This document shows, piece by piece, positions 5,826 through 52,024 of a DNA stretch of 59,547 bases (position 1 is the stretch's first letter; the number at the start of each line of letters is the position of its first letter). Source of the DNA: Nemertoderma westbladi (Eukaryota > Animalia > Xenacoelomorpha); contig JAUCBJ010001549.1 in NCBI GenBank assembly GCA_032718475.1, positions 1 through 59,547 on the forward strand, read 5' to 3'. Under the pieces are notes generated by a model. That model saw only the letters and a list, made by a program, of their open reading frames with translations, had not been told where the DNA came from and did not search any database. A program made the translations under genes and the position numbers.

Positions 5826-6034
5826 CTGTGGGATACAAAATAAATAAATAATATATTAATTTTGAGCTAATTATACTACAGTATTCCTGCACAGTATATG
5901 TACGGATGTTTTTTATTAATAATAAGTGAATTGTTGTGGGGTGAGTGACGGTAAATTAAATATATAATGTATTAGGACAATATGATAATGCTCTCCATAG
6001 CGAAAAATTTCAACCGACCTTATTGGAGCTCGGA

Positions 6035-16078: not shown

Positions 16079-16464
16079 TGTGACGGGATCAGAGGATCCC
16101 GACCAGTTTGGTTTCGTTACGCGTCACCGTGTAATCGGAAAAGAATAGTTGATTGTTGTCGTTCCAATATTGTTAATAGGTTGAAATATGATATAGAATA
16201 AAATAGCACAGTTGATTGTAATGTTATTGAGATTACACTAATATAGATGTTATACTGGTAGTGAGATATGTTGGTAACGGCGGTGACGGTACAAAAATGT
16301 CACCGATCTGCTCTAGATGACTGAGATAACTGACCGGTAAATGAGGTATGCTGATAATATATATTCACTCCTATGCTATTGTGGCCTTGCTACCTAGCGG
16401 ATGCTTTCCCTTATCCCTGATTGGCCAATAACCTAATTCTCGGCTGCCACCTCTGTGGGAGTGT

Positions 16465-16495
<31 letters not shown>

Positions 16496-16691
16496 ACCGC
16501 TGCTGTCACTTCCCTCTCGAGGTAGCTTGACCTCTAACCTCTTTTGTGTGGCTCTTTGGGGCTATATGTTGTCCCCGTTATTGGGGGTGATACGAGGTTA
16601 ATTGTGATTAACCTCGTATTCCCCAATATTGCTGAAAACGCCACTTCTCAACTTTTATGGGGATAGTGGAGCAGAATTGAATCCGCTCACA
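16079..16691 (-). repeat. 3' LTR of inner BEL/Pao element
   Basis: About 97% identical by eye to 28232-28827 apart from poly-C length. Preceded on the sense strand by the PPT GGGGGGGAG. Confidence 0.95.
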
Positions 16692-17190
16692 CTCCCCCCC
16701 ATGCTATCTTCCCAGTGAGAAGATAGCATCACCTACGAGTGCGCTTCAATTCCGCTGGAACCCGATCTATTATCGGGTGTGGGGTGGAGTTCTCTTTCTT
16801 GGAGTCGGCTTTCCAGGCCGCTCCCTCTGGGTATGATATCGCTACCCTCTCTTGGTGCAATTTCACATCTGGCGTCTCGGTTCGAGACAATTGTGGATTT
16901 CTCTCACACAATTTTGAACTCCTCTCCACTCTAACTCTTCTCTACCTCTCTCTACTTCACCCTGATTCTCCCCTACTTCTCTTCTACTTCTCTCTAACTC
17001 TCGGACCTCCTTGTCCCTCACTCTACCTCTTACTCCTCCCCCCCCCCCCACACTTGAATTGCAACTGCATTCTCTCCACGCACCTCAACGCCATCTCTCG
17101 CTATCTCTCTTCTCCTGCATTCCATACTCAACTCCCTTTTAGCCCTTTCACTCCTGACGAGCCTCACCCTCCCTTTCCGTGCCGTCGCAC

Positions 17191-18759
17191 TTAAGAAGTG
17201 TCAAGTGTGTAGTGAGTGTGTAGTGCGTGGCCGATTCTTCCGATGGGCGGCATCTCTCCGAACTCATCGTCGTCCTCGTCCTCCTCTGGGAGTGGCTCCA
17301 AACCCGGTATCCCGGTGGATCCACTGTGTCCCTTCCCACCTTGGCTCTCGCCCGTGACTCTCCATCCTTCCAGTTCCCCTGGCCTTCTCTTCGCGAAATC
17401 ACCCTCGGCGCCCGCTGGTATGGGCATTGTCTGCAATCACGATGTCGACTGTTTCGGTGATCCTTCCGCACACCCCAATTCTCGCCCTAGAGACTCGCCC
17501 GAACTCCCTGATGTCCAGTGTAGATCGTCCAAGGCCGCCTGGGCCTCGAACCCGTAACCCTCTCCTCTAGCTTCCGCCTCTCTTTCGTCTGCCTCCCTCC
17601 TTTCTCGTCTAGCGATTTCTTCCAATCGCTTCGCCTCTCGTCTATCCGCCTCTAGCTGCTCCCACCTCTGATATGGTGTATCCACCTCCCTGTCTACTAG
17701 ATATCGGCAGTTATAGTATACCGACTCGCCCTTCAGCCCCGGGTGGTCTACCAGACCCTCGAAAGCCACTTTGAAGGCTCTTCTGTAGTTCAGGGGTGAT
17801 CCCGATAGCAGAAATGCCGTTGGTTCTCTCTCGATAACCACGGTCATGAATAGGTTTAGCAAACCTATCATTATCCAGTCCTCCTGCAGGATATATCGCT
17901 TCTGATATATCTTTATCGCTCCTCTCCGGAATTGATACACCTCTTGTTTCCCCGGCCTTGCTCCCCACTTCAGCGAGTTCGCCAACTCCGCTCCGTACTC
18001 CTCCCTGAATTTGCCCCAGTCCATTGGTTTGTGGCATACGAGCCCCATTAGCTGGCCCATCGCCACCACTCCACAATGGCCCGTGTTCTCTACTAGTCCC
18101 AACCCGGCTGGCGCTGTCATAGCCATGTAGACCGTTTGCATGTCCAGGAGGTTGGGGGTCTCCGGACCGATGATTCTCTCCGCATCGTCGCGGATCGCCG
18201 ATCCCACCTTTATCGTCGACTTCTCTCTTACTAGGTTCTGCACCACCTTGGCAACCGGTTTAACTTCGGCCCGTTCTTCTTCCCATACGTTCCCAGATCG
18301 AACAGGAATATATCCCCATTTGGCGCGGCCAAATGCAGGAGTATGGTTCTGGCCAACCCCGCCGACCCTCTTCTCGAACCTTCCTCGTCTTCCACGGTCC
18401 CTTCGTCGTCTAGGGTCATGTATCCTCCCCTGCTGACGGACTCTACGAACCTCTTCCAGTCCTTTTTCGGTGGTTCCCTTGGATACTTCGGTATCCCGAA
18501 CTTCGCCTCGTCTCCTTTTACCACGTAGTGGAAGTGCTCGAAGATCTGCATTGTCTAGCGACGGTGTCCCGTAGGTCCCGACCAGCCGCTGCTCGTGCAC
18601 CTCCCTGAAATGGTCCTGCAGCGCTCGTGCCTTGTGACCCTTCTCTAACCGCACGTAGTATCCTCTCGTCTTCTCTTCTGGATGCCTTTTGGTGAAATCT
18701 ACCAGTATCTCCTTTCCTCCCAACTCCGCCTTTCTCTTTCTAACAAGTTTCTCCGCCAT
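17191..18759 (-). pseudogene. Extra ORF (env position) encoding a DEDDy 3'-5' exonuclease-like domain (WRN/EXD family) plus coiled-coil and acidic tail; two frameshifts and one in-frame stop
   Basis: Joining ORFs 18231-18551 and 17437-18804 gives ExoI MTLDDEG, then LLHLAAPNGDIFLFDL, LP[K]VVQNLVREKSTIKVG, ExoII AIRDDAERI, LLDMQT, KWGARP, and ExoIII RYILQED. Confidence 0.7.
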
Positions 18760-19179
18760 TTCGAACTCTCCCGATCGCTCACCTATAAGGTGGTGCCTTA
18801 CCAAGGCGCAATATAAGTGAGTGATGTAGTTAGGATGGTGTGTACGGTCCGATAATGGGCTATCTCTCTCTGAATGCTAGGTTATTGCCGAATTTTCTTA
18901 TTCTACTCCCTAAAGGTGCCAAATTTCCTAAATTCCCTAATTCTGTCAGTTACTTTAATTATGTTCTAGAATATCCTGCCTACTGTTACCATAATTTGTC
19001 TAATTTGGATTTTAATATTTATTTTAATCCTACAACTGTGCTATCAGTATCTATTAATGGATTATTTGCTTTTAATCCCCCTTCTGACCTATTCTACAGG
19101 CTGTGCAGTACAGTAGTATGTCTCATGCGGCCAACACGATCTGTCCTGCTGTACCCACGTGCCCCCCTCTCACTACTCA

Positions 19180-19740
19180 CTACTAACTCTACTAACTCTA
19201 CTAACTTCCACTAACACACTAATTCTTACTAACATTCTAACAAACTTCTACTAATTCTTACTATGTACCCTCTTACTAACTCTTCCACTAACGGTACTAC
19301 ACGTACCCTCTTACTAACTCTTCTACTAACGGTACTACACGTACCCTCTTACTAACTCTTCTACTAACGGTACTACACGTACCCTCTTACTAACTCTTCT
19401 ACTAATGGTACTACACGTACCCTCTTACTAACTCTTCTACTAACTCTTACTAACGGTACTACGTACCCTCTTACTAACTAACTCCACTAACTCTTACTAA
19501 TGGTACTACGTACCCTCTTACTAACTAACTCCACTAACTCTTACTAACGGTATTACGTACCCTCTTACTAACTAACTCCACTAACTCTTACTAACGGTAC
19601 TACGTACCCTCTTACTAACTAACTCCACTAACTCTTACTAATGGTACTACGTACCCTCTTACTAACTAACTAACTCTCTAACTAACGGTACTACATACCC
19701 TCTTACTTCTAACTAACTACGTACCTACTATGTACTATTA
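19180..19740 (-). repeat. ~39-41-bp tandem repeat spacer between integrase and the extra ORF
   Basis: Repeated AACGGTACTAC(AC)GTACCCTCTTACTAACT... units. Homologous array at 49040-49710. Confidence 0.9.
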
Positions 19741-19866: not shown

Positions 19867-21264
19867 CTAAGGTGCGCCCTCCAGTAGGCAACACTTCCCT
19901 ACAGCCCTCCTGTAGGTCTTCCTATCTTTCGCTCCTATCTTACCCCCTATCCGCACTTCCACCGATCGGACTCTTCCGTCCTCGTCGGAGTAAGTGTCCA
20001 CAACTCTTGCTAACCTCCACTGATTGTTGATAATGGTGTCGTCTGTGATGATCACCAAATCACCCTTCTTTAACTCCCTAGTGGTATTTCTCCACTTACT
20101 CCTCCTATGAAGTGTGGGTAAGTATTCCTCAACCCACCTCCTCCAGTACTCTGCGCTTATCGCCTTAGCGACTTTCCAACTCTGTCGGGAGTGTATGTCA
20201 TCTGGGTCTACACCCCGCATGTCGATGGTCGCCGGCCTCTCCATTAGAAAGTGACTGGGTGTTAGCACATCTAGTGATTCTGGGTCGTCATTTTCTGGGT
20301 ATAGCGGTCTGCTATTAATGATACCCTCGCACTTAGCTAGCACCGTCCTTAGTACATCTTCTGTCACCATGTGGGTGTTCATCAACTTCGTCATCAGACG
20401 CTTGGAACTACCCACAAGTCTCTCGACGCATCCTAAAGTATGCGGAGCATACGGCGTCCTCCTCTCCCACTTCACCTGTCGTCTCCTCATGGCTGCCCTG
20501 ACTTCCTCTCCTTCCAGGATGTCCAAGGCCTCTGCCAGCTCGTTCTCCGCCCCCACAAAGTTGGTTCCATTATCGGAGTATATCACTGCGATCATCCCAC
20601 CTTTGCGGTCTCTGAACCTCTCTAGGGCATTGATGAATGCCGTTTCGGTTGCGTCTTGGGCGAGTTCTATTCCTACCGCCCGCGTGTTGTTACATACGAA
20701 GATAATGCCGTAGCGCTTCTCCGTGTGCCGCATCACCCTGATCTTTATCGGCCCGAACATATCTACACCGCAGTGCGTGAATGGCGGGTCGTGCTGTCTC
20801 ACCCTGCTGGCCGGTAATGGCGCCATCTCCTGTATGGCCCGCTCCTTCCTCGTCCGTCGGCAGGTCTGGCACTGCCCCACTACCGCCTTCACCTTCTTTC
20901 TTAGCTGTGTGATCCAGAAGGTCCTCCGTATCTCCGTGAGGGTCTGGTTGGTGCCCCCGTGCAATATCGACTTGTGGGAGTCCCAAATGATCTGGTGGAC
21001 TATCGGCGATCTATTTGGGATGATGATGGGTTTCGGTGGGATAATGAGGCTGTTGTTATTTAGCACTCTAGAGTTCATTACTAGGATCCCATCGTCATTG
21101 AGTTGTGGCGACAGCGTGATGAGCTCGCTGTCCCGACGAAGATGTTGTTGTTCACTGACGCACCCCACTTCGTGGCCGTAGTACCTTTTCTGTTCGTAGC
21201 GAATCACGGCCCTGGCCGTTCCCTCCAGATCGATGTTTGGTTTCCTCTTGGTCGTCCCTGCCAA
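19867..21264 (-). CDS. BEL/Pao integrase (HHCC zinc finger, DDE core, C-terminal DUF5641-like region)
   Basis: SHKSILHGG...CQTC, GVDMFGP, SDNGTNF, VERLVG, YWRRWVEEYLPTL. Confidence 0.9.
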   Translation of the reverse strand: MAGTTKRKPNIDLEGTARAVIRYEQKRYYGHEVGCVSEQQHLRRDSELITLSPQLNDDGILVMNSRVLNNNSLIIPPKPIIIPNRSPIVHQIIWDSHKSILHGGTNQTLTEIRRTFWITQLRKKVKAVVGQCQTCRRTRKERAIQEMAPLPASRVRQHDPPFTHCGVDMFGPIKIRVMRHTEKRYGIIFVCNNTRAVGIELAQDATETAFINALERFRDRKGGMIAVIYSDNGTNFVGAENELAEALDILEGEEVRAAMRRRQVKWERRTPYAPHTLGCVERLVGSSKRLMTKLMNTHMVTEDVLRTVLAKCEGIINSRPLYPENDDPESLDVLTPSHFLMERPATIDMRGVDPDDIHSRQSWKVAKAISAEYWRRWVEEYLPTLHRRSKWRNTTRELKKGDLVIITDDTIINNQWRLARVVDTYSDEDGRVRSVEVRIGGKIGAKDRKTYRRAVGKCCLLEGAP

Positions 21265-22267
21265 TCCCCTTGAGGAAATCCCCGAAGGCTCTCCAGTACG
21301 CTACCAACTTCTTGGTCTTGTACCAACTTGAGCTGTAGCTGAGGAGTTTATCCGTCGGGTTATCGCATGGTTCTTCTGATTTTGGTTGCACCTCCCTGAT
21401 CTCCCTTGCCATCTGACTATATATCTCTTCACCTTCTGAGTCTCCTCCTTCTTCCTCCAGTGTTACTTCCTCTGAGCCCGGGTCCACCTTCTTCCTCGGT
21501 GGCCAGGCCGTCCTATCATTCAGGAACTGTGGCCCGTGCTGCCACAATACTTCCTTCTTCAAGAAAGTGTGGCGTGCCACGCCCCTCGATAACAAGTCCG
21601 CTGGGTTCTCGTCCGTTGGGCAGTAGTGCCACCTTTCCAACTCAGTTGTCGCTCTTATTTCGTCCACCCTATTTGCGACGAATATAGGGTATCTCGTCTT
21701 CTCATTGTGTAGCCAACCAAGCACTACCATGGAGTCCGTCCAGTAGTGTGTTTCCACTATATTGGGAATAGTGTCCATCAAGTAGGCTGTGGCCCTTACT
21801 CCTAACCTTGCAGCTGTCAACTCGAGTTTCGGGACCGATGCTGAATCTGGCGGCGTTGACTTTGCTTTGCTGAATGCAAGTCTGGGCTTATGAGCCCCCT
21901 CTCGTTGTACTAGGTAGAGTGCCGCTCCGTATGCTTCCAATGACGCATCGGAGAACATGTGTAGATCCAGATCCATCATGTTCCCATCCGGGAAATACAC
22001 ACGTGGCATGCTGTATGTCCCCATCTGTTCTAAACTCTCCGTCCACTTGCTCCATTGCTTGCTGATCTCTTCCGGGACCTCTGTATCCCACTCGTCCTTT
22101 AGCTTATATACTTTCTTAAGTATCTGCTTCCCCGTGACTAATAGTGGGGATGCTAGGCCTAGGGGATCGTATATCCTTGCTATGTATGATACATAGCCCC
22201 TCTTTGTGTGGATGTCCGCGCCCTCTGGCTCAGCTGATACTTGAATTCGTCTGTCTCTCGATTCCAC
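21152..22267 (-). CDS. BEL/Pao RNase H region (peptidase A17-type); frameshifted relative to its neighbours
   Basis: IYDPLG, LHMFSDAS, VPKLELTAA, YWTDS, FVANRV, ENPADLLSRG. Confidence 0.9.
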   Translation of the reverse strand: MESRDRRIQVSAEPEGADIHTKRGYVSYIARIYDPLGLASPLLVTGKQILKKVYKLKDEWDTEVPEEISKQWSKWTESLEQMGTYSMPRVYFPDGNMMDLDLHMFSDASLEAYGAALYLVQREGAHKPRLAFSKAKSTPPDSASVPKLELTAARLGVRATAYLMDTIPNIVETHYWTDSMVVLGWLHNEKTRYPIFVANRVDEIRATTELERWHYCPTDENPADLLSRGVARHTFLKKEVLWQHGPQFLNDRTAWPPRKKVDPGSEEVTLEEEGGDSEGEEIYSQMAREIREVQPKSEEPCDNPTDKLLSYSSSWYKTKKLVAYWRAFGDFLKGIGRDDQEETKHRSGGNGQGRDSLRTEKVLRPRSGVRQ

Positions 22268-23892
22268 ACGATCCCTAGTGCCTTCTGCTGGTACTCTACC
22301 CTCTTGTTCGCCATGTCCTGTCCCTTTGCTGTTGTGGGGTTATCCATGGTCGACTCTGGCCTCCTGTCCTCTATGGCTTTCATAAACTCTTCTGAGCTGG
22401 ATTGGAACTTGGTCAGGTTAAACCCGGATCCCTTCAGGATGTCGCGAACCTCGCGCCCCGTATCCAGTAGTTCTTTAACCGTGTTTCCAGACTCCATTCC
22501 GTCGTCTACATAGAAGCCGCGTCGAATCATATCGACGGCTTTGGCGCTATATTTCTCCTCTTTCCCCTCTACTGTATCCCTCACAGCCACAGTCGTCGTA
22601 AATGAGGACGACTTGGCCCCCATATTCTGCACCACCATCTTGTACATCGGTATTGTCGACGGTTCCTCGTCGCCGTTGTACCATAGGAAGCGCTGGCTGT
22701 CACTATCCTCCTCCGTCACACGGACTTGGTTAAACATGCCTTCAATGTCGCAAGTGAAGGCGTGCCTCCCGTTTCTGAATCTCAGTAGGACCTCGATTCC
22801 TGAGTTATAAATATTGGGACCCTCCAGCAGATAGTCGTTTAGGCACTTGCCGTTGGTCTTAGCTGACGCGTCAACTACCATTCGTAATTTACCTTTCTTT
22901 GGGTCTAGAGCCACGTGAAGTGGCAGGTAATAGGTCCTGTCTGTGTTCGGTTCGTCGACCGGTAACTCCACGGCCCATCCTTTCTCGACATACTTTCTTA
23001 TCGTTTTATGAATGTACTCATTCTTTTCGGGGCTCCGTTTTAGCGTTTGCTTCAATTTACGAAGCCTCGTGAGTACCATTCCCTTGTTGTCTGGTAGCGG
23101 TAATTTTGGTTGTTTCCATACCATCCCTATGGTGTACCGCCCCTCGTCGCATCTCATCGACTCCTTTACGCTTTGTATTGCCTGCTTATCCTCTACCGAG
23201 GTTCCGACCCCGGTCTCTTTCAATCCCTCAAAATCCTGTCTAAGTAGTCTCCTGAGCTGCTCCTCCGCTCCTTCATCTTCCATCTCCCTCATAGTTCCCG
23301 CGAACATGCACCCTGATGTCTCCGACATCCTAAACGGAATCTTGGTTCTAATTAGGCTGCTTAGCGTCCACCTGAATGTTGTTAAAATTGCCACCGGGTC
23401 ACACTGTCTGTCTTCGCCGAAGACCGTCTGCATTCTCTCGTGGGCCGTCGGGCAGTCCATTTCTACTATAATGGATACCTTCCTAACGTCCACCTCTGGT
23501 ATTGAGAAATCGATACTGTCCAGGAATCTATATTGTTCAACCTCGATGTTGGTTGGTCGCCTGGCATTGACATTTATCGATTCTATCACCTGGACGGGGT
23601 CGATCGTCGCCCCATAATCGCATCCCGGTGCTATCGCTGCTATCCCGCACCGTCCGGTCCTCATCTCCAAGACCTCATCTTTGCTGGAGATGGTTGTTAC
23701 CGCCATCCTACTTGGCCTCGTCTTCAATCCTATCTCTTCGGCCACCCAATTCTCGACCAATGTGAAGGCTGCTCCACTGTCGACCAGCATTAGCGTGGTT
23801 ACTGATCGATCGCCTTCTCCGATCACCCTCACTGGTACTACCCCGAGTAGTACCGTTCCTCTCTTCTTCGCCCCTACGGTGCTTGTTGCCAT
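22180..23892 (-). CDS. BEL/Pao aspartic protease plus reverse transcriptase
   Basis: LVDSGA (protease); YYLPLH, KLRMVVDAS, CDIEGMFNQV, FYVDD (RT). Confidence 0.92.
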   Translation of the reverse strand: MATSTVGAKKRGTVLLGVVPVRVIGEGDRSVTTLMLVDSGAAFTLVENWVAEEIGLKTRPSRMAVTTISSKDEVLEMRTGRCGIAAIAPGCDYGATIDPVQVIESINVNARRPTNIEVEQYRFLDSIDFSIPEVDVRKVSIIVEMDCPTAHERMQTVFGEDRQCDPVAILTTFRWTLSSLIRTKIPFRMSETSGCMFAGTMREMEDEGAEEQLRRLLRQDFEGLKETGVGTSVEDKQAIQSVKESMRCDEGRYTIGMVWKQPKLPLPDNKGMVLTRLRKLKQTLKRSPEKNEYIHKTIRKYVEKGWAVELPVDEPNTDRTYYLPLHVALDPKKGKLRMVVDASAKTNGKCLNDYLLEGPNIYNSGIEVLLRFRNGRHAFTCDIEGMFNQVRVTEEDSDSQRFLWYNGDEEPSTIPMYKMVVQNMGAKSSSFTTTVAVRDTVEGKEEKYSAKAVDMIRRGFYVDDGMESGNTVKELLDTGREVRDILKGSGFNLTKFQSSSEEFMKAIEDRRPESTMDNPTTAKGQDMANKRVEYQQKALGIVWNRETDEFKYQLSQRARTSTQRGAMYHT

Positions 23893-23899
23893 TGTCTGT

Positions 23900-26800
23900 C
23901 CTTTACCTTGACCGAACTTAATTGGTATTTCTTTGCATTGATCAGCTCTGTTGCCCGCCCATCACACATCGAGGACAGACTTCGCTCTTCCTCGCATATT
24001 CTATCTGATCTTGTCTGGGCAATGCTTGCCAATATCTGCAGTTCATGGTCTGATGAAGTGCGTTCGTGTGTAATTGGCACCTGTTGTTTGGATTATAGCC
24101 ATCCTTATACAGTGCGCTGCGTATCGCACTTCTGTTCGTACCTAGATCCTTACTATTCTTATTGTTTGGTTTCGGCCTACTGGGCGTGTTGGGGTTATGT
24201 TTATTTGTATTGTTATTTTTTCCCTGTCCGCTCCATGGTGTGGCCCTACCCCCGGCTACATGTGGACTAGCAGTCCCCTGCGTCACCGCGTATGGCAGCG
24301 ATTGTCTGAGCTTTGGCAATGCGTTCGCCGTGTTGTGTTCTGGTTTCGGCCTGTTGTATTCGGTCTTTGGCCCCTTTCCCAGACTATCCTCGCTATAGAC
24401 TGGGTCTGTGATCAATTCGGCTTCGTAGTTGAGGAAGCTCGACATTTCTTCTAAGCCCGGTTCCGCACCCTTCTTCTCTTGGATGGAGAAAGCAATTTTC
24501 CTCCACTTGTTGCGCAGCCATATTGGCAGTGCCTGTGCTATCGTGGTGATGTTATTAGATGCGTTGAGTTCGTATGGCGCGTCTAGCGTCTTCAACACAA
24601 TTAGCGCCTTCTCGACTTTGTTCGTAAACGTCTTTATGCTAACGGGGTTATCCTGTAGGCCACCCGATGTTATACCCCTCAGAGTCTGCTGGATGATCTT
24701 GGACGGGTGCCCGTACTCCCTGTCTAGCGCCCGCCATGCTGTCGTGAAGCCACCCTCGATGCCCTGGTACTGCCTCACGATGTCATATGCTGGACCTCCT
24801 GTATATACCTGTAGATATTTTAGGCACTCCGCCTGCGTCAGGTTCTTATTCAATATCTCATTGCTGTACATGCGCCGAAATTGCAGGTATTCTTCCGGCC
24901 TACTTCCATTGAATTAAAATGGTTCGACAGGTGGTAACTCGATTCTGGTCTTCAGTGCATCGATTAACGTAGCCATTCCCATCGCCTGTGCTTCCAATGG
25001 GTTCGATGGATGCTGTACAGATTCTCCCGTTGGGTGCGGTCCGCCCGTCCTGTCTGTTGCCCTCCTTTGCGTCGGGTATATCATTGGGGGTAACGGCCCC
25101 CTCCATATTTCCGTGTCGCAGGATCTGTTCTCGTCCAGGGGGTTCGTTGTTCTTATTCCTGTTTGAGTATATTGTTCATATTGTGATGGGGGAATGTCAC
25201 CCTGTCCCCCCCCCCCCCCCCCCCACCGGTATATTTGGTACTGGGATTGATGTTAATATATTGGGCCCATAAACCTATCTGCAATAACTCTCCCCTCCCC
25301 TGGATATATGTTATGTCCCAGCATGCTATAGTCATACTGTTGTGCTGGTACCGCTATAGCCTATCCACTTCTGGCCTACCTACCGGTATGTACTCCGCGA
25401 CCTCCGGGTTTAATCCCATCGTCCACGCTACCCTATCGCCTACATTATCTCTCCCAGCATGGCCTATAGTATGTGCAGTAAGGCCTACAGTATGTCCTGC
25501 AGTCTGTATGTATCCCTCTGGACCGAAGATTAACCTTCTCGAATAATCCAAGAAGTCCTCCCCGCGGCAACTGTACCCTCGATCGGCAGCTATATCCCGT
25601 CGGGAAGTTTCTCTCCGATCTCCTCTACTATTCTCATCCACGTACCGGTACGCCCTGTACCCCTCTCTCAGCGTATAGTACACCTCGCCAGGTCGCGTTT
25701 CTCCGGGACGACGGCAATCTCCCAGAGTTCGACCACACCGACTCTCCAACTCCATCTCTACTACCGACGGCTCGCTATCCATCCTCGCTCTCCTGTCGCT
25801 CGCAACGACACTTCTTCTACTCTCTTCTCTTCTTCTTTCTGCAGTGTAGCGTCCCCGATCACGAGATCTCTCGTCGACCTCTCGGTTAAACTCGACTGTT
25901 CTTCTTCCCTCTTCTGACTGGGCTCGACTTCTCGTCGCTCGCCCTCTCGCGACGTCAACCTCTCTCTCTCTACCCTGTCGCACGCCGCCGGGGATATTCG
26001 TAACCCCCCTACTATTCTCCGTCACCAGGTGCTGCGGTTCACCTAGTCCGTCCCGCGCATTATCCGCCGACGCCTGTGGGGCACTATCTGCCCCCCCCCC
26101 CCCCTCTCGCCGCTAGTCTCTCATCCTGGGGCCCCTGTAGCCCCCCCCCCCCCCCCCCCCACTCGCCACCTATCACTTCACTATCTCTCACTTTGCCTCT
26201 ATGCCCCTCTCTAGTCGATGCATTAACTCTACTGCGGCTGGGTCTATTCACCCCCGCCCCTCCCTCTATCACTATGTGGCCTGGCAGGCTCCCATCGGGT
26301 TGACTCACCCTCGCTACACCCTGCATATTAACTACGTGGCCTACCAGGCTCCCATCGGGGTCTCTCACCCCCGCTACCCCCTGCGTACTGATTATGTGGC
26401 CTGGCAGGCTCTCGTTGGCCGGACCACCTACGTCTGCCGCGTTTATATTAATAGCACCATTATCAATATTATTTTCTAAATTATTTAAATTATTAGAATT
26501 ATTCCGTGCTGAATTCGGGTTATTATTTAAATTATTCTGTATATTTGAATTAGAATGGGGATCATTCTGCTCGTTTGAATTAAAATTATTATTTAGATTA
26601 TTTTGCGTATTTAAATTTAAATTATTTGAATTATTTTGTATATTCGAATCTGGATTATTTGAATTTTTTGGATTATTATTTAAATTAGGATCGTTCGGAT
26701 TTAAATTACTATTATCGGGCAAAATATTATTTCCTGCAATGAAAGTTTGATTAGGGTTATCTACTACGGTACTATTAATATTAACGTCCTCTAATGTATT

Positions 26801-28169
26801 GTTATTACCCCCCCCCCCCCCCCCCCCGCCCATACGGTTACACCAGTCTTGGGTCTGTCGTCCGGTCCCTGTAAGTGGGATATTAACAAACGTTTCCATA
26901 ACTTCCGGTTCCTCGTAAATGCTACCCGAGCCAGCCTCACTCTCTGATAGTCCCAACTGCGCCAGCTCTAGTCGGCGCTTCTGCTTGGCCTGATACTGCA
27001 TAAGCCCCCTTAGCCGGGCATGCATATCATCCCACATACGCTTTCCCGCTCTCTCTCTCTCTCTCTATCCTCCCGTAAACTTTGGTCCGCAAATTCTACC
27101 TCTCTCGCCTCCAGCTCTCTACGTTCATTCACTTCTCTCACTTCTCGTTCTTTGTGCTCCGCTTTCTCCCTCGTCTCTCATTCCTCGCGCTCTTTACGCT
27201 CGCTCATCTCTCTTTCTTCCCGCTCCCTACAGTTTCTCGCCACCCTCTCGGCCCTCTCTCTACACTCCTTCGCCAGTTCCATCTCTTTCTCTAACAACGC
27301 AGTTCCCTCTTCCAACTGCCTCTCTAACTCTTTCTGGTCTATCGCCACCATGTCTAATTGACACGCCAGATCTATTTCTAACACCCTTTTTGCTTTTGCG
27401 GAGGATGTAGCGGACTTGTCAGTCGCGACGGACCCCCGTCGCCTCTCTTGTCCTACTAACTTTCCCCCGCTTTCTGGGGTTCTCGTTAACCGACGAGACC
27501 GAATCCTCGGGGTTAATCTCGGATTCGCCCTCTTGCGAGTCTGCCCAACCCACTAACTTAATTCCCCTAGCATCCACTAAATACGGCCCTATGTATACTA
27601 CTTGGGGCTCCATTATCCCGGACCGCCATAGTTCAAATAGTTCGGTGGCGACCCCCCTCGCTCTCTCACTGGCTAGTTCTCCCTGTCCAAAGCGAACTAG
27701 GTATCTAAAATGTTTATTCGACTCACCTAGTTGCTGGCTCAACTTCCCTTGGTCTACCTTTGCTCCCTCTCTGGCCTCCCTGAGCTGTTTCTTCATCGCG
27801 TTGTAGGCTCGTGGGAGCCGGTCACTGGTTCCGACGTCCTCATTGCCGACCTCTCCTCCTCCCCTCCTGGTTCGGCGTCGTACCGGCGGCCCCACCATCG
27901 CCGTTCCGGTGGGCCATCCGTCGCCCTCGGCCTGCGGCTGGCCGGCGACATCGGTACTTCGACCTCCGTCATGCGTCGACTCGTCCTCTCGACTTGCTAA
28001 TCCCTCGTTGTGGTAGACGGCCGCCCTCCGCTTGGGCTGCCGGATCGTCTCTCTCCGGCATTGCGGGCCGATACCGTCGCATCGCGGCCTCACGGATAAT
28101 TTCGTTGGTATCGTCCGGGGTCCGCGGCGGTGTCCTCTCTCCCTCTAGATCTCGGGGCTCTGTGCTCAT
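23900..28169 (-). pseudogene. BEL/Pao gag with a long N-terminal extension, broken by frameshifts and stops
   Basis: Collinear ORF fragments 28169 to 23942: coiled coil, Asn-rich tract, DUF1759-like core (YLQVYTGGPAYDIV...LDREYG), C-terminal zinc knuckles (CQLH...H...C; CPRC). Confidence 0.85.
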
Positions 28170-28231
28170 CTTTCAACTCTTCTTCCCTGGTGGCTGGCAG
28201 TCACAGTTTTAGCAGTTTGGGATTTTTGTAC

Positions 28232-28827
28232 TGTGACGGGATCAGAGGATCCCGACCGGTTTGGTTTTGTTACGCGTCACCGTGTAATTGGAAAAGAATA
28301 GTTGATTGTTGTCTTTCCAATATTGTTAATAGGTTGAAATATGATATAGAATAAGATAGCACAGTTGATTGTAATGTTATTGAGATAACAGTAATATAGA
28401 TGTTATACCGGTATTGAGATATGTTGGTAACAGCGGTGACGGTACAAAAATGTCACTGATCTGCTCTAGATGACTGAGATAACTTACCGGTAAATGAGGT
28501 ATGCTGATAATATATATTCACTCCTACGCTATTGTGGCCTTGCTACCTAGCGGATGCTTTCCCTTATCCCTGATTGGCCAATAACCTAATTCTCGGCTCC
28601 CACCTCTGTGGGAGTGTCCCCCCCCCCCCCCCCCGCTGCTGTCACTTCCCTCTCGAGGTAGCTTGACCTCTAACCTCTTTTGTGTGGCTCTTTGGGGCTA
28701 TATGTTGTCCCCGTTATTGGGGGTGATACGAGGTTAATTGTGATTAACCTCGTATTCCCCAATATTGCTGAAAACGCCACTTCCCAACTTTTATGGGGAT
28801 AGTGGAGCGGAATTGAATCCGCTCACA
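28232..28827 (-). repeat. 5' LTR of inner BEL/Pao element
   Basis: Matches 16079-16691. Followed on the + strand by the TSD GGGTT. Confidence 0.95.
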
Positions 28828-41990: not shown

Positions 41991-43230
41991 TCTTTCACCG
42001 CGTGGATATAAATAATAAAAAAAGGGCTTTGTTATTCATCGTATGGCTATTTCACCCTCGCGGGCTTCTTCAGCAGTTTATTGATATATAAAATAATAGT
42101 AAAAACTAATTTAATTAAAATGTACAACAATTTACAGGGTTAGGGTACTTACCAAGCAACATAACAGACATACAGTATTGAATTGTATTTAAGTAGGACA
42201 TAGAATATATTAAATTACAGACGGAGAGTCATATATTATATTACAAAAAAAATAAATTTAGTGCAGTGAGGTGCTGGTGCTGTGGTCTACTGCATTATTG
42301 CTGTAGGTTAGCAGAATATCTCTTTGTGCTAGTACCGTATACAGTGGTCACGGTATGGTGGTGCAACATGCAGATAGGTTTGCTCAACCCTTTATGGGGG
42401 TTGGCAAACAGTAAAGGAAATCAAAACATTAAAAGAGTTGACGAAGCAACATCGAAACGTAGCTCGTCTTATCTGGGTGAAGTCTCAATTGCATAGTAGT
42501 TGTAATATTTTGCACCAAATAGTTTACTGATAAAAATATATGGTTAAACTTATATTAAAATGGGAAAAGTTGTTAGCGAATTCAATTCCGCTAACCACCC
42601 CACAAAGTTAGCTTTAAGCAATATTGGGAGCACGAGGTTGATTGCCAATCAACCTCGTATCACCCCAATAAGCGGGGACGACAAACCCCAAAGGGACACA
42701 CAATGGGGGTCAGAGGTTGTACCTCCGAGAGAGAGAGAATGACAGTAGCAAGGGGAGAACACTCCCAGGGAGATGGGAGGGCGAGAATTAGGTTATCAGC
42801 CAATGGGGGGCAGGCATCCACTGAGTAATATGGCCAAACCAGAGCAATATATTACCGGTTGGTGTTATTCATTGACTCAGTTATCTCAGTACAGTTAGGG
42901 CAGAACGGTGACTTTTGTTACCATCATCGCCACCATCATCCATCAATATTACCGGTATACTTAGGCCTATTTACTCATCAATTGTGCTAACTTACTTTAC
43001 TCTATTGTATCATATACATATATATCAATAACATCGGAAGAACTATAATAACTCTTTTACACACGGCGGAGACGCGTAAACAAACAACCAGGATAAATCG
43101 GGATTTTCGGATCCCGTCACAGTAACAAAAACCCAAGCTGCCTGAGAATGCGACTGCCAGCCACAGTAACAAAAGAACCAACCACCCGAGACTGTGACTG
43201 CCAGCCACCAATCTAAGGAAGAAGTCGAAG

Positions 43231-46200
43231 ATGAGTCGAGAGGGAGAGACGACACCGCCGCGGACCCCGGACGACGATAACCTAACGATCCGCGAGGCCG
43301 CGACGTGACAGTATCAACCCACGACGCCGGGTTCGTCGACGATAGACGATCCGGCAATCCAAGCGGAGGGGGGCCATCTACAACGAGGTGCGAGCGAGTG
43401 GAGAGAAGGGAGAGACGAGTCAACACACGGCGGCGGTCGACATACCGATGTTGCCGGCCAGCCACAGGCCGAGGGCGACGGACGGCCCACCGGAATGGCG
43501 ATGGTGGGGCCGCCGGTACGACGCCGAACACGGAGAGAAAGAGGGGACGTCGGCGACGAGGACGTCGGGGTCAGCGACCGGCTCCGGCGAGCCTACAACG
43601 CGACCCGAAAGCAACTGAGGGAAGCCAAAGGAGGGGCCAAGATAGACGAGGTAAAGCTAGAGAAGCGGCTAGGTGAGTTGAATAAACATTTTGATTATTT
43701 AGTGCGCTTTGGGCAGGGAGAACTGGCCAACGAGAGAGCGAGGAGGGTCGCCACGGAACTGTTTGAACTATGGGAATGTAGGGGTATGGAGCCTGGTATA
43801 GTGTACATAGGGCCATACTTAATCGATGCCCGGGGAATTAAGTTGGTGGGTTGGACAGGGCCGCAGGAGGGCGAATCTGAGGTTAACCCTGAGGATTCGG
43901 TCTCGTCGGTCGGCGAAAGTTCCAGGAAGCGGGGGAAAGTTAGTAGGACGGGAAGGCGATGGGAGTCCGTCGCTACCGATAAGTCTGCTACATCCTCCGC
44001 GAAAGTAAGACGGGTGATGGAAATAGATCTGGCGTGCCAACTCGATCTGGCGGCGCTAGAGACCAGAGAGAATTAGAGAGACAGTTAGAGGAAGAGAGTG
44101 CATTAATAGAGAAGGAGAAAGAACTGGTTAGAGAGAACAAAGAGAGGGTCGCGAGAAAATTTAGGGAGTATGAGGAGATAGAAACGAGGGAAAGAAAGGA
44201 GCGAGAAGAGCGTGAGGCAAGAGAACAGAGTGAATGTAAAGAGCGTGAGGCAAGAGAACAGAGTGAACGTAAAGAGCGTGAGGCGAGAGAACAGAGTGAA
44301 CGTAAAGAGCGCGAGGCGGCAAGGGAGGCGAGAGAAGAGAGTGAGCGAAAAGAGCGTGGGGCGAGACGGCTTGGGAGGATTGCGAGAGAGGCAGAGTTAG
44401 CCGATCAGAGTTCACGAGAGGATAGAGAGAGAGAGAGAGTGAGAGAAAACGTGTGCAGGATGGTATGCATGCCCGGCTAAGGGGGCTTATGCAGTACCAG
44501 ACGAAGCAGAAGTGCCGACTGGAACTGGCACAGATGGGGCTGTCAGAGAACGAGGCTGGCTTGGGTAGTATTTACGAGGAGCCAGAAGTTAGGGAAATAT
44601 TTATTAATACCCCACATACAGGGACCGGACGACAGACCCAAGACTGGTGTGACTGTACGGGCGGGGGGGGGGGGGGGGGGGGGTAATAATAACAATACAG
44701 TAGATAACGTTAATATTAATAGTACCGTAGTGGATAATTCTAACCAAACTTTCATTGCAGGAAATAATATTTTTCCCGACAGTAGTAACTTAAATCCGAA
44801 CGATTCTAATATAAATGTACAAAGCAGTCCGAATAATTTAAATAATAGTCTAAACCCAAATATACAAAATAATTCAAATAATATAATTACGCAAAATAAT
44901 TCAAATATTTTAAATCTAAATACACAAAATAATTTAAATAATAATCCCGTTTCAAATTCTAATAATTCTGATAATTTAATTGATTTAGAAGATTTAATTG
45001 ATTTAACAGATAATGTTGGTAATGGTGCTATTAATATGAACGTGGCGGACGTGCATAGCCCAGCAAATGAGGGCCTGGTAGGCCACGTAGTTAGTAGGCA
45101 GGAAGTGGCGGGGGTGAGAAACCCCAACGAGGGCCTGGTAGGCCACACAGTAGTAGAGGGAGAGGCGGGGGTGAATAGACCCAGACACAGTAGGGTTAGC
45201 GTGTCGACTAGAGAGGGGTGTAGAAGTGAAGTAAGAGGGGTAGTGAAGTGATAGGTGGTGAGTGGGAGGGGGGCTACAGGAGCCCCACAATGAGAGATTA
45301 GCGGCGAGAGGGGGGGGGGCAGTGAATGCCCCACAGGCGTCGGCGGATAATGCGCGGGGCGAATTAGGTGAACCGCAGCACCCGGCGATGGAGAATAGTA
45401 GGGGGGTTGCGAGTATCCCCAGCGGCATGCGACTGAGTAGAGAGAGAGAGGTTGACGTCGCGAGAGGGCGAGCGACGAGACGTCAAGCCCAATCAGAAGA
45501 GGGAAGAAGGACAGTGGAGTTTAACCGAGAGGTCGAGGAAAGATCTCGCGAATGGGGACGCTACACTGGAGAAAGAGAAGAGAATAGAAGAAGTTTCGTT
45601 GCGAACGACAGGAGAGCGAGGACGGATAGCAAGCCGTCGGTAGTAGAGATGGAGACGGAGAGTCAGTGGGGTCGAACTCCGGGAGATTGCCATCGTCCCG
45701 GAGAAACGCGACCTGACGAGGTGTACTATACACCAAGAGGAGGGTACAGGGTGTACCGGTACGAGGACGAGAACAGTAGAGGGGGTCGAAGAGAAACTTC
45801 CCGACGGGATCTACCTACCGATCAAGAATACGGTTACTGCGGGGAGGATTATTCAAGAAGATTAAACTTCGATCCCGAGCGACACGTACAGACTGCAGGA
45901 CATACTGTAGGCCTTACTGCACATACTATAGGCCATGCTGGGAGAGATAATGTAGGCGATAGGGTAGCGCGGACGACGGGATTAAACCCGGAAGTCGCAG
46001 AGTACATACCGGTAGGTAGGCCAGAAGTGGATAGGCCTATACCGGTACCAGCACAGCAGTATGACTACAGCATGCAAGGACATAACATATATCCAGGGGA
46101 GGGGAGAATTATTGCGGATAGGTGCATGGGCCCCAATATATTAACATCAACCCCAGTATCAAACATACCGGGGGGGGGGGGGCAGGGTGACATTCCCCCA

Positions 46201-48945
46201 TCACAATATCAACAATATACTCCAATAGGAACAAGAACATCGAACCCCTTGGACGAGAACAGGTCATGCGACACCGAGATATGGAGGGGGCCGCTACCCC
46301 CTATGACATACCCAACACAGAGAAGGGCAGCAGATAGGACGAACGGACCGCACCCAACGGCAGAATCTGTACAGCATCCGTCGAACCCATTGGAGGCACA
46401 GGCGATGGGAATGGCTACATTAATCGATGCCTTAAAGACCAGGATCGAATTGCCACCTGTAGAGCCATTTAAATTCGATGGAAGTAGGCCGGAAGAATAC
46501 CTGCAGTTTCAGCGCATGTACAGCAATGAAATATTGATGAAGAACATGACGCAGGCGGAGTGCCTAAAATATCTGCAAGTGTATACAGGAGGCCCAGCAT
46601 ACGACATCGTGAGACAGTATCAGGGTATCGAGGGCGGCTTCACGACAGCATGGCGGGCGCTAGACAGGGAGTACGGGCACCCACCCAAGATCATCCGGCA
46701 AACCCTGAGAGGTATAACATCGGGTGGCCTACAGGATAACCCCATTAGCATAAAGACATTCGCTAACAAAGTTGAGAAGGCGCTAATCGTGCTAAAGACG
46801 CTGGACAGTGGATGCACCATACGAACTTAACGCATCCAACAACATCACCACGATAGCGCAGGCACTGCCGATGTGGTTGCGCAACAAGTGGAGGAAGATC
46901 GCCTTCTCCACTCGAGACAGGAAGGGTGCGGAACCGGGTTTAGAAGAGATGTCGAGCTTCTTAAACTATGAAGCTGAACTAATAACGGACCCAGTCTATA
47001 ACGAGGATAGCCTGGGAAAGGGACCAAGGACCGATTACCACAGGCCGAAACCAGAACACAACGTGTCGAACGCATTGCCAAAGCTCAGACAGTCACTGCC
47101 GTACACGGCGACGCAGGGGACTGCTAGTCCACAAGTAGCCGGGGGTAAGACCACATCATGGAGTGGGCAGGGGAAAAATAACAACACAAATAAACATAAC
47201 CCCAACACGCCCAGTAGGCCGAACCCAAACAATAAGAATAGTAGGGACTTTGGTACAAACGTAAGTGTGATATGCAGCGCACTGTATAAGGACGGCTACA
47301 ACCCAAAGAGCAAATGCCAATTACATACAAATGCACTTCATCAGACCATGAACTGCAGGTACTGGCAAGCGCTACCCAGGGAAGATCAGGTAGAATACGC
47401 GAGAAGGAACGAAGTTTGTTCTCGGGTGTGACGGGTGGACATAGAGCCGACCAATGCGAAGAAACGCCAATTAAATTCGGTCAAAGTAAAGGGCAGACGA
47501 TGGCGACAAGCACCGGAGGGGCGAAGAAAAGAGAAACGGTACTACTCGGGGTAGTACCGGTAAGGATAATCGGGGAAGGCAATCGATCAGTAACCACACT
47601 GATGCTGGTCGACAGTGGAGCAGCCTTCACATTGGTTGAGAATTGGGTGGCCGAAGAGATAGGATTGAGAACGAGGCCAAGTAGAATGGTGGTAACAACC
47701 ATCTCCAGCAAAGATGAGGTCCTGGAGATGAGGACTGGATGGTGCGGGATAGCAGCGATAGCACCGGGATGTGACTATGGGGCGACCATCGACCCCATCC
47801 AGGTGATAGAATCGATAAATATCAACGCCAGGCGGCCAACCAACATCGAGGTCGAACAATATAAATTCCTGGACAGTATCGACTTCTCAATCCCAGAGGT
47901 GGATGTTAGGAAGGTATCCATTATAGTAGGAATGGACTGCCCGACGGACCACGAGAGAATGCAAACGGTCTTCGGCGAAGACAAGCAGTGTGACCCGGTG
48001 GTGATTCTAACACCATTCGGGTGGACACTAACTGGCCCAATCAGAACCAATATACCATTCAGTGTAACCGAGACTTCAGGGTGCATGGTGCCAGGGACTG
48101 TTGAGGAGGTAGAGGAGAGGCCAGAAACGGGCGATGGTGGGAGACAGCTAGAAGTGGAAGCAACACCAAGAGAGTGGGCGGAGGAGAATGGCCTGGATGA
48201 GGAAGACCTAGAGGCGATGGGGTGGAACGAGGATGTTCCTGGCAAGTATCGGTATGGGGACGGAGAGGAGTGGACGGCGAGATGTCCGGAGGAGTGTCCG
48301 GAGGAGTGTCCGGAGGAGTGTCTGGAGGAGTGTCCGGAGGATTGTCCAGAGGAGTGTCCGGAAGAGATGCCGGTCCGGTTGAGAGGCATACCGAAGAGGG
48401 AGAGGCCGAGTAAGAAGACAAGATGGAAAGGGAGAAGATGTGAGATGATTAGACCAGGGGCAGAGAAGCCCAAGAGTAAAGATAACAAAGGAGCCAGGAA
48501 AGCAGAAGGAGGCCTGTTGCATATGCACGCGGAACCGACAGAGTGCGAGGGGGCATTACATAGGCAAACATCATGTATACCGAAGGACGAATGGGTGTCA
48601 TCGAGGCCTTTAATGCCAGCGCACATATTAAGGGGGAGGCCAGCAGAGGTGGCATCTAAGATTAAGGACAAAAACAGGGGCGGCATTATACCGCTGAACG
48701 ACAAGTTGAAGGGTGGCACTCTGCCGCTAAGGGACGACCACGAGGAGATCAGAGACACAGAGAGAAGGCAGCACTTTCCAAATTTAAGGACAGGAGAAAA
48801 GGGAAGGTCAATTCCAAGAGAGTTGGAATTGACAAGGAGAGCGGGGCGAAGAATCAGAGGTCCTACAGGGGGGGCAGTGGAAGAACTGCCTGCTAGAGGG
48901 CGCACCTTAGTTGAGTTGAGTTTAGTCGTCCAAGTTTTGGACTGA
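43231..48945 (+). pseudogene. gag-protease region (frameshifted) fused to a novel low-complexity C-terminal tail
   Basis: ORF pieces 43495-44076, 44649-45251, 45262-46830, 46808-47431 and 47314-48945 (LVDSGA). Diverges after TETSGCM into (CPEE)n and short pol-like remnants. Confidence 0.8.
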
Positions 48946-49039
48946 GGGGGGTGGGATTGAGGGCGAGACGCCCTTCCCACACACATAAAATAAAATAAAA
49001 ATAAATAAAGAAAGAAAGAAGAGTAAGTAGGCAGATAGA

Positions 49040-49710
49040 AGTTAGTTAGTTAGTAGTAAGAGGGTACGTAGTACCGTTAGTTAGATAGTTAGTTAGTAGT
49101 AAGAGGGTACGTAGTACCGTTAGTTAGATAGTTAGTTAAGTAGTAAGAGGGTACGTAGTACCGGTTAGTAGGAGTTAGTTAGAGGTTAGTAAGAGGGTAC
49201 GTAGTACCGGTTAGTAGGAGTTAGTTAGAGGTTAGTAAGAGGGTACGTAGTACCGTTAGTTAGATAGTTAGTTAAGTAGTAAGAGGGTACATAGTACCGG
49301 TTAGTAGGAGTTAGTTAGAGGTTAGTAAGAGGGTACGTAGTACCGGTTAGTAGGAGTTAGTTAGAGGTTAGTAAGAGGGTACGTAGTACCGGTTAGTAGA
49401 AGTTAGTTAGAGGTTAGTAAGAGGGTACGTAGTACCGGTTAGTAAGAGTTAGTGGAGTTAGAAGTTAGTAAGAGGGTACATAGTACCGGTTAGTAAGAGT
49501 TAGTGGAGTTAGAAGTTAGTAAGAGGGTATGTAGTACCGGTTAGTAAGAGTTAGTGGAGTTGGAAGTTTGTAAGAGGGTACGTAGTACCGGTTAGTAAGA
49601 GTAGTAGTTAGTTGTAGAACTAGTTAGTAAGAGGGTACGTAGTACCGGTAGTAGGAGTTGTAGAATTACTTAGTAAGAGGGTACGTAGAGTACCGTTAGT
49701 AGTAAGAATT
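49040..49710 (+). repeat. ~40-bp tandem repeat spacer (TTAGTAAGAGGGTACGTAGTACC core)
   Basis: Roughly 15 copies of the core. Reverse complement of the 19180-19740 array. Confidence 0.9.
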
Positions 49711-49837
49711 AGTGGTAGGAGGATATGTATAAGATATAGTATATAGTAAGAGATTAGAGAGCACAAATACCGTAGAAGTAGTAGCCAGAAAGGTAGATAG
49801 GGTAATAGCACAAAACAAAATAAAATTAAGAATATCA

Positions 49838-50050
49838 GGATCACCTCCGAACTACAGAAGAGCCTTCAAGGTGGCCTTCGAAGGTCTGGTAGACCACCCG
49901 GGGCTGAAGGGCGAGTCAGCGTAATACAACAGCCGGCATCTAGTAGACAGGGAGGTGGATACACATATCACGTGGGAGAAGTTGGAAGCGGATAGATTTG
50001 GGGAGAAGCGACTGGAAGAAGTCACCAGGCGAGAAAGGCCAAGAGAGAAT
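49838..50050 (+). pseudogene. Remnant of the extra ORF (post-exonuclease part only)
   Basis: Matches GSPLNYRRAFKVAFEGLVDHPGLKGES...KRLEE of ~17600-17800 (minus strand). Confidence 0.85.
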
Positions 50051-52024
50051 GAGGCGCGTTATGTAGATGAGCATATAATATAATATATGATAATAATAGC
50101 CTTATAATAATTATATAAGTAACTCACATATATATATTATAAAGTATGTACCGTAGTCAAGCACAACCTTTTCCAATTAGCTACTGGGACTGGGGATTGA
50201 TTGACTAGGGCGACAGGACGGGACTTAGACGGCTCCCAGTAACATGTGCGCACATGTGTGGGGCCCGATAAGTGTGTAAGGGACGAAAGCGAGAATGGGG
50301 ATCGGGGGGGAGAATGGAGAGGAGGCCTTTTTTTGACAGGATGAGGGACAGTGAGAGGAGTGCAATTCGAGTGTGGGGGGGAGGAGTAAGAGTTGGAGCG
50401 GTTGAGAAGTTGGAGTAAGGGATAGAGCGGAGTTAGAGTGGTGAGAGTGTTGGGGAAACAAAAAATTGTGTGAGCGAAGCGCACGATCGGCCCAACACGG
50501 GACGCCAGATGTCTTGGTGCAAGATAGATAAAGTTGCACCAAGACGGGGTAGCGATATCATACCCATAGGGAGAGGCCTGGAAAGCCGGCTCCGGAAAAA
50601 AAAAAAAAATAGCTCCACCCCACACCCGATGGTAGATCGGGATCCAGCGGAATTGTAGCGCACTAAAGGTGGATGCTATCTTCTCACCGGGAAGATAGCA
50701 TGGGGGGGAGTGTTAGCGAATTCAATTCCGCTAACCACCCCACAAAGTTAGCTTTAAGCAATATTGGAAGCACGAGGTTGATTGCCAATCAACCTCGTAT
50801 CACCCCAATAAGCGGGGACGACAAACCCCAAAGGGACACACAATGGGGGTCAGAGGTTGTACCTCCAAGAGAGAGAGAATGACAGTAGCAAGGGGAGAAC
50901 ACTCCCAGGGAGATGGGAGGGCGAGAATTAGGTTATCAGCCAATGGGGGGCAGGCATCCGCTGAGTAATATGGCCAAACCAGAGCAATATATTACCGGTT
51001 GGTGTTATTCATTGACTCAGTTATCTCAGTACAGTTAGGGCAGAACGGTGACTTTTGTTACCGTCGTCGCCACCATCATCCATCAATATTACCGGTATAC
51101 TTAGGCCTATTTACTCATCAATTGTGCTAACTTACTTTACTCTATTGTATCATATACATATATATCAATAACATCGGAAGAACTATAATAACTCTTTTAC
51201 ACACGGCAGGGACGCGTAAACAAACAACCAGGATAAATCGGGATTTTCGGATCCCGTCACAAAAGTTATCTAATGGATGTCTAGGCACATTTATACAGTA
51301 GATATACTCTACTTTGAGCGAAGGCTAGATTACATAATGAATGTGTTAATTTGCATCAAATTCAGTAGTTTGCGATAAAAGATATATTGTTAAGGTTATA
51401 TTAAAGGTGGATATAATGTATGACAAGTGAATACTGTGGAATTGCGTAATAAAACTAGTATTTTTTGCACCAATTAGTTTGCCGTTCAAAGAATGCCTCA
51501 GGTGTCAATGTTAAATTGCTAAAACTGGCAAACTGTTAAAGTTACTAATAAACTGAAAATCTCAGCAGATAAAGAGGTGATGTCTAATTGAGGAGCTCAT
51601 GTTATATACAGTTATGTCAAGTACAAAAACAAGAAATATTTCGTAATCTCCTTGAATTACTTTTAAACAAACAACCACCTAGATAAATTGTCTCAAATGC
51701 GTTCACCTTTGACCACTTCTAGAGCGAGACTAAGTGTTACTGTCTAAAAAATAATTATCTCAGCATTTTTATTTCCATTAGCATTATCATCTCTTCCTAC
51801 AGTATTATTATTGTGGTAGGTTCCATTTCTCGACGCCAGGAGTCCCAATAGATTTGTAATGTCACGTTGAAATAACAGTGTAACGGATAACATGGTGTAC
51901 TATCCCTCCCGCGTTGAAGTGTAATCTATCATATATTCGATATCAGACCAAAAAAAAAAACGATATACGTAAGAATAGGATATAAATTTAGAGTTTCGTC
52001 AATGAAATTCCGATGACGCAATCC

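Follow-up and report, generated by a model that had tools for sequence, protein, structure and literature searches.

Here we describe a high-copy family of BEL/Pao retrotransposons in Nemertoderma westbladi that carries, between pol and the 3' LTR, an additional open reading frame (ORF3), which very probably descends from the DEDDy/DnaQ exonuclease family. ORF3 is present family-wide and was under purifying selection. Our best reading of these sequence data, to which we assign a probability of roughly 0.4, is that ORF3 encodes an active, trans-acting 3'-5' exonuclease of the WRN/EXD2 type that would act on the ends of RNA or cDNA made by the element itself.

The window, by which we mean the whole stretch of 59,547 nucleotides that was analyzed (contig JAUCBJ010001549.1), contains a full-length but decayed BEL/Pao LTR element of 12,749 bases on the minus strand (28827 to 16079; Table 1). 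Its Pfam domains occur in the order PF03564, PF13650, PF00078 (under the cut-off), PF05380, PF17921, and PF18701, that is, gag followed by protease, reverse transcriptase, RNase H, and integrase with Pao-specific domains, and this bears out the superfamily assignment made in a first-pass annotation. The LTRs begin with TG, end with CA, and are 94.6% identical to each other, a 5-bp target duplication is found on either flank, and the LTR lengths of 596 and 613 nt fall within the 0.2- to 1.2-kb criterion for BEL/Pao, whereas the length of the whole element lies above the ICTV range of 4.2 to 10 kb (PMC8742986). As the coding region is scattered over many frames, this copy is dead. Judged by its domain content, the element is of the BEL/Pao type with atypical priming; we use this label because a tRNA-type primer site is missing and pairing with the element's own LTR is seen instead.

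Table 1. Features of the BEL/Pao element, its ORF3, and a second family member in the window
Feature	Position	Strand	Evidence or remark
5' LTR, 596 nt, TG...CA	28232..28827	-	94.6% identity to 3' LTR; 5-bp duplication
Candidate self-primer: LTR stretch complementary to first 10 bases after 5' LTR	28442..28451	-	2/5000 resampled LTRs reach 10 nt
Primer-binding position, without TGG-type tRNA site	28222..28231	-	
gag region, several broken frames; DUF1759 at 23942-24913	23942..28144	-	PF03564, E 7.9e-11
Protease and reverse transcriptase	22180..23961	-	PF13650, E 8e-6; PF00078, E 0.0014, under cut-off
Pao-type RT end/RNase H region (Peptidase_A17)	21152..22339	-	PF05380, E 3.1e-42
Integrase with DUF5641, stop at 19867	19867..21300	-	PF17921, PF00665, PF18701
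Spacer of tandem 38- and 47-bp units, separating integrase from ORF3	19180..19714	.	
Candidate branch point, pyrimidine tract, and splice acceptor	18783..18833	-	One of two interior places with YTRAY...YAG pattern
ORF3, exonuclease-like gene, ~522 codons	17191..18759	-	Broken in window copy at ~18547, ~18247, and 17437-17439
ORF3 middle piece, second frame: putative ExoI D-x-E (18410-18402) and two hydrophobic strands	18250..18546	-	
Putative ExoII motif KVGSAIRDD; Asp at 18186-18184	18184..18210	-	
W-x-x-R-P motif, insert, putative ExoIII Y-x-x-x-E-D (17895-17878)	17878..17970	-	
Charged Glu/Arg-rich helix, coiled-coil-like	17560..17680	-	Judged by eye
Polypurine tract	16692..16700	-	Precedes 3' LTR
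3' LTR, 613 nt	16079..16691	-	94.6% identity to 5' LTR
Second family member, internally deleted	42571..51261	+	LTRs 98.7% identical, 5-bp duplication; without RT, RNase H, integrase, and most of ORF3
Remnant of ORF3 3' part in second element, with stop	49833..50038	+	84.7% identity over 209 nt

The second family member is a young, nonautonomous copy in which the protease frame extends for ~290 codons without a Pfam match. Both copies have a spacer of ~38- to 51-bp tandem units between pol and ORF3 (49036-49666 in the second copy), with a different unit structure in each, and both have a short hairpin at the extreme 3' end of the LTR (28232-28255 and 43098-43121), with different loops. Four coding pieces of MFS transporters (PF07690) lie on the minus strand at 4911-5855, 31648-32241, 36518-37555, and 39242-39826; these probably belong to a tandem cluster of host genes that surrounds the element. 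Other retroelements have left remains at 8515-9723 and 12048-12722, namely, a reverse transcriptase (PF00078; E 4e-28) along with the zinc finger of an integrase. Satellite arrays occupy 52000-54200, 54780-55660, and 55950-59400; their units are 11 to 13 bp long, TTAGGG-like but degenerate, or GC-rich and 22 bp long, the last of these in inverted blocks. A search with the integrase returned no viral contig and a single relative, with 32% identity, on a 1.5-kb metagenome contig, which is shorter than needed to show ORF3.

ORF3 is separate from pol, with the spacer lying between the integrase stop and the ATG at 18759, and it occupies the env position, on the sense strand between integrase and 3' LTR, as had been proposed; every peptide quoted in the first-pass annotation was found on the minus strand. 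The frame that begins at the ATG is open for 440 codons and ends at a stop codon at 17439-17437, and the half with the putative ExoI motif (GYMTLDDEG, ILLHLAAPNGDIFLFDL) sits in a second frame, at 18554-18231. The two frameshifts by which these frames had been joined are real and compensating. Contigs from four DNA runs with the same organism label, representing at most three samples, were aligned to 17100-19150, a region covered by 4516, 2941, 2754, and 7 contigs in the four runs. A single-base indel at 18547 is present in 14, 12, 4, and 2 contigs of runs X1, X2, X3, and X5, and single-base indels at 18245/18249 are present in 8+3, 7+2, 4+2, and 0 contigs of the same runs. At both sites, the summed contig depth drops to ~800 to 4,500, compared with tens of thousands nearby, and at 17439 a different letter accounts for 18140 of a depth of 18168 in run X1. 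These breaks are thus private to the window copy, where they represent mutation or assembly error. Programmed frameshifting was rejected, since other copies carry indels at both places. The proposed span of 18759 to 17191 holds for the family ORF; however, the stop at 17437, which the first-pass annotation did not mention, must be passed, and we extend the family ORF to ~522 codons because other copies differ at this codon and the third-position bias described below continues beyond it. That ORF3 is a one-off insertion was likewise rejected, as the gene is covered at full length in thousands of contigs and its remnant, already cited against this idea, is present in the second element.

Purifying selection is evident from the variants among the aligned contigs, for which the best 40 of 430 and the best 40 of 96 rows were listed, ranked by support regardless of codon position. 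Excluding the breaks, positions 17439-17470 and 18653, and rows outside the ORF leaves 49 distinct rows in 17600-18244 and 18250-18546. Third positions account for 36 of these 49 listed variants, and 36 of 49 are synonymous (P ~1e-8, with nonindependent rows and related copies). In the C-terminal part, the signal follows the ATG frame (27/36 listed rows), and in the middle part it follows the second frame (9/13), such that it switches frame at the ORF3 breaks. Beyond the stop at 17437, 10 of 13 listed variants are in third positions (P = 0.002). The codons aligned with the catalytic acidic and tyrosine residues have only two variants among the rows listed, both synonymous. As for dN/dS below 1 among family copies, which had been suggested as a check, the two window copies give a pairwise value of 0.18 over the 66 codons of the ORF3 remnant, which lie downstream of the nuclease motifs; protease likewise has 0.18, and gag has 0.08 to 0.14. 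Hence, the constraint on ORF3 has been similar to that on the core genes.

Standard searches returned no usable relative of ORF3. None of three ORF3 pieces matched Pfam and none of four matched NCBIfam, and neither a PDB sequence search nor a word-based protein search with the pieces gave a match. Among 1.84 billion representatives, there were two matches, both to TPR-repeat proteins over 30 to 40 residues, and these were rejected; metagenome contigs gave no ORF3 match, plasmids gave two weak matches (E 3 and 8), and the single genome-contig match, a Psychromonas frame, is unlike a nuclease and was rejected as chance. Single-sequence AlphaFold models of the pieces are of low confidence (pLDDT 34 and 45); that of the ExoI piece has the helix-strand-strand-strand order expected for the fold, and fold searches with the second model gave no match (best E 0.96; best Z 2.7).

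Support for the proposed WRN/EXD-like ancestry comes from three other approaches. In the ESM Atlas, residues 170 to 370 have 28 of 30 matches in a PF01612 set (best score, 0.93), and the separate ExoI piece has 23 of 30 matches (score, 0.90) in a set in which 22% of the members of the best cluster carry PF01612. For this piece, the two best clusters are unnamed (0.91 and 0.90); an unnamed cluster scoring 0.90 is mostly rotiferan, a lead for possible kinship with the rotifer ORFs. The counts of shared features, 163 and 148 of 256, are under the tool's benchmark of 170, and shuffled proteins score 0.9 in 4 to 10 of 100 cases; two nonoverlapping pieces in different frames nevertheless lead to the same family. 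For profile comparisons, reference sets were assembled from bacterial genomes and a homolog search, and the query was a read-through in which X marks the breaks. In the PDB, the WRN-like set matches WRN, Mut-7, and EXD2 best (2fbt, 6k17, and 7jw2 on top). A WRN/EXD2 HMM placed the read-through at the top of 502 targets, of which 200 were shuffles, with an E value of 0.004, in an alignment running from ExoI to ExoII across the break; only one of seven HMMs reached E < 0.01, which brings this value to ~0.03 after seven tries. A narrow and a broad WRN-like HMM gave E values of 2.9 and 0.086, respectively, local HMMs from the short RNase D-like, RNase D, Pol I, and pooled sets left the read-through unranked, and HH-align with three profiles did no better with it than with shuffles. 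In an ordered-motif test, for which ungapped blocks are chained along the sequence, blocks picked by hand after inspection of the query gave a z score of 6.5 (0/300 shuffles). Automatically chosen blocks gave z scores of 3.3 (2/200) and 3.1 (0/200) for two overlapping WRN/EXD2-like sets and 2.5 (4/200) for RNase D, and no signal came from the Pol I set or from the short RNase D-like one. On the X read-through, the motif chain reached much higher scores than on the open frame taken alone, both for hand-picked (34.5 versus 13.3) and for automatic (27.9 versus 7.8) blocks; blocks of the C-terminal half score 0.3 to 2.1 bits.

With the WRN/EXD2/Mut-7 subgroup of PF01612, ORF3 appears to share the order and spacing of the ExoI D-x-E, two hydrophobic strands, K-V-G...D, L-L-D, W-x-x-R-P, and Q-x-x-Y...W. 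It differs from this subgroup in being too diverged for Pfam or phmmer, in having inserts after ExoII and before ExoIII, and in having no helicase or other host domains. At ExoI, TLDDEG, which follows a hydrophobic strand, aligns with GFDxE in three of five profiles and in the HMM alignment. At ExoII, KVGSAIRDD aligns with KVGVGIxxD, where both WRN/EXD2-like sets put TIKVGSAI ahead of the Asp; in the RNase D set, the Asp falls within SAIRDDAE. At ExoIII, which is preceded by an insert of ~12 residues, YILQEDW aligns with YAATDAW, and the three positive profiles share this register as well as that of TLDDEG on ExoI. The canonical YxxxD of a DEDDy site, claimed earlier, is not what the sequence reads: the Tyr is kept, but the residue four positions after it, in the column of the last Asp, is a Glu, with an Asp one position later. 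ORF3 is therefore likely DEDDy derived but outside canonical DEDDy membership. Given DEDDy ancestry, catalysis has probably been kept with a D-E-D-E(y) site.

ORF3 does not look like an envelope gene. The read-through of 439 residues has a best 19-residue hydropathy of 1.46, 4 Cys residues, and no N-glycosylation sequon; with neither a clear transmembrane segment nor a sequon, and no Pfam match, we conclude that it is not an envelope. Its N-terminal basic patch KLVRKRK is one that we take to be NLS-like. The letters of the proposed branch point (CTAAC at 18833) and acceptor (TAG at 18783) are present, within a pyrimidine island: although the strand is rich in purines, pyrimidines make up 60% of the 60 nt that precede 18783, which places this stretch in the top 0.14% of element-interior windows of that size, and the acceptor would lie 24 bases before the ATG. 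A donor-like GTGAG directly follows the acceptor AG (18783-18778) and makes this acceptor ambiguous. The case for expression of ORF3 from a spliced mRNA, and for action in trans, is weak.

If active, the ORF3 nuclease would act during replication and remove unpaired 3' ends from RNA or cDNA of the element itself. As a substrate, the most specific candidate is the 3' flap of a self-primer, discussed below: because the pairing of this primer stops exactly at the LTR edge, an exonuclease halting at the duplex would leave the correct primer end once the RNA had been cut further downstream. Another candidate job is the trimming of cDNA ends before integration. Counting against this reading, a separately made protein would have to reach the particle, and the basic N-terminal patch points to the nucleus. 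The same patch would fit a nuclear protein directed against host defense, and the sequence evidence for an active exonuclease applies equally if ORF3 degrades or mis-trims piRNAs, siRNAs, or their precursors and the family thereby escapes silencing. This explanation, which we regard as rather unlikely, though the strongest of the rivals, is in keeping with the abundance of the family (4516, 2941, and 2754 contigs) and with independent capture by unrelated retroelements, which suggests a general benefit. However, piRNA 3' ends are usually 2'-O-methylated, a modification that confers resistance to such exonucleases. The fold relatives Mut-7, EXD1, and Maelstrom act in small-RNA pathways, as described in the available text of PMC5408684; on the other hand, the same text reports DEDDy ORF3s in rotifers without a clear link to copy number.

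Such relatives also illustrate the possibility, to our minds unlikely and somewhat more so than an action on silencing, that the nuclease fold of ORF3 has little or no catalytic activity and serves as an RNA-binding or decoy module in the manner of EXD1 or Maelstrom, with the charged helix mediating oligomerization. The Glu in the last Asp column, the insert before ExoIII, the extreme divergence, and the weak C-terminal blocks would all be expected of such a protein, and the part under selection takes in the nonnuclease tail. However, each of the five catalytic columns still has an acidic residue or the Tyr, with three profiles agreeing on the register, and rotifer ORF3s, in which Asp is likewise swapped for Glu (DEED), are judged possibly active in the available part of PMC5408684. 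That ORF3 is a real, selected accessory gene of some other fold, with exonuclease motifs arising by chance, is improbable: the blank sequence and fold searches and the Atlas scores reached by shuffled proteins speak for it, but the agreement of two nonoverlapping pieces in different frames and the far higher motif-chain scores of the read-through speak against it.

Returning to an exonuclease acting on the element's own ends, both copies show a self-priming signature in place of a tRNA site. The ICTV profile describes a primer-binding site complementary to a tRNA, but in neither copy does a TGG directly follow the 5' LTR. Instead, the first 10 bases in one copy (28222-28231) and the first 9 in the other (43122-43130) pair with a homologous stretch of the LTR (28442-28451 and 42913-42921, respectively); in both copies the pairing ends exactly at the LTR edge, and the pairing bases differ between the copies in a matched way. 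Such pairing was equaled by 2 and 13 of 5000 resampled LTRs for the two copies, and the minimum-energy fold formed it in one of four trials. A search by title found no paper on self-priming in BEL/Pao. Tf1 and Tj1 belong to the Ty3/Gypsy group, their primer is cut by RNase H, and to our knowledge they have no exonuclease ORF. Like the present copies, they have a primer-binding site complementary to their own LTR transcript, according to the available text of PMC4600332, and a reference title therein states that the Tf1 self-primer is made with RNase H; self-priming thus needs no extra nuclease.

It is conceivable that this lineage dropped tRNA priming and that its own 3'-5' exonuclease trims the self-primer to the edge of the duplex, although we consider this quite unlikely. 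The nuclease gene and self-priming are tied solely by sharing one element. If the idea is true, the retroelement would possess an enzyme dedicated to primer maturation, and a DEDDy nuclease borne by a retrotransposon would for the first time have a specific job.

Juno and Vesta, two LTR elements of rotifers, are Ty3/Gypsy-like. The statement in the first-pass annotation that DEDDy cargo occurs in LTR and Penelope-like elements of bdelloid rotifers is confirmed by the literature: Rodriguez et al. (2017) described DEDDy ORF3s in Juno, Vesta, and Athena/Terminon, with a DEED site and an untested function, as far as the available text goes (PMC5408684). Common to these ORF3s and ours are a separate ORF3 between pol and the 3' LTR, a DEDDy-type sequence, and one Asp-to-Glu swap. 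Here, however, the host is BEL/Pao, and the likeness is one of position and motifs. Unlike the rotifer ORF3s, the present one fits WRN/EXD2-like profiles slightly better than RNase D (z 3.1 to 3.3 versus 2.5). Furthermore, its swap is at the fourth acid rather than as in DEED, it has a charged helix that is absent from the rotifer ORFs, and purifying selection is clear, whereas no clear departure from neutrality is reported within rotifer genomes, again within the available text of PMC5408684. Dada DNA transposons also carry a DEDDy 3'-5' exonuclease domain, with a proposed role in 3'-end processing; in these, the domain lies inside the transposase and all four acids are canonical (available text of PMC3706591). 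The accessible parts of PMC6431247 and PMC6338049 repeat the rotifer and Dada cases.

Env-like third genes of BEL/Pao are known from roo and from mosquito elements with a Chuviridae-like glycoprotein, and they are the only third genes named for the superfamily in the ICTV profile (PMC8742986) and in the available text of PMC13524379. These genes have the same position in elements of the same superfamily as ORF3 but encode a viral fusion glycoprotein. A search by title and start of abstract, with Repbase, subscription papers, and supplements outside its reach, found no report of exonuclease cargo in BEL/Pao, and the word "exonuclease" occurs 0 times in the surveys PMC3118150, PMC6238403, and, as far as its text was available, PMC13524379. 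DEDDy ORF3 cargo of LTR elements is already published, and what is likely new is exonuclease-like cargo in BEL/Pao.

Taken together, these findings widen the occurrence of enzyme cargo in the env position, known from rotifer retroelements, to include BEL/Pao, a superfamily that we otherwise found described with viral glycoproteins only. The available text of PMC5408684 leaves the choice between end processing and counter-silencing undecided; because the present family combines a high copy number with clear purifying selection and has, in the self-primer flap, a defined candidate substrate, the question could be tested with one protein and short oligonucleotides. That unrelated retroelements have captured 3'-5' exonucleases more than once suggests that they share an unmet need, which may be either end processing or counter-silencing.
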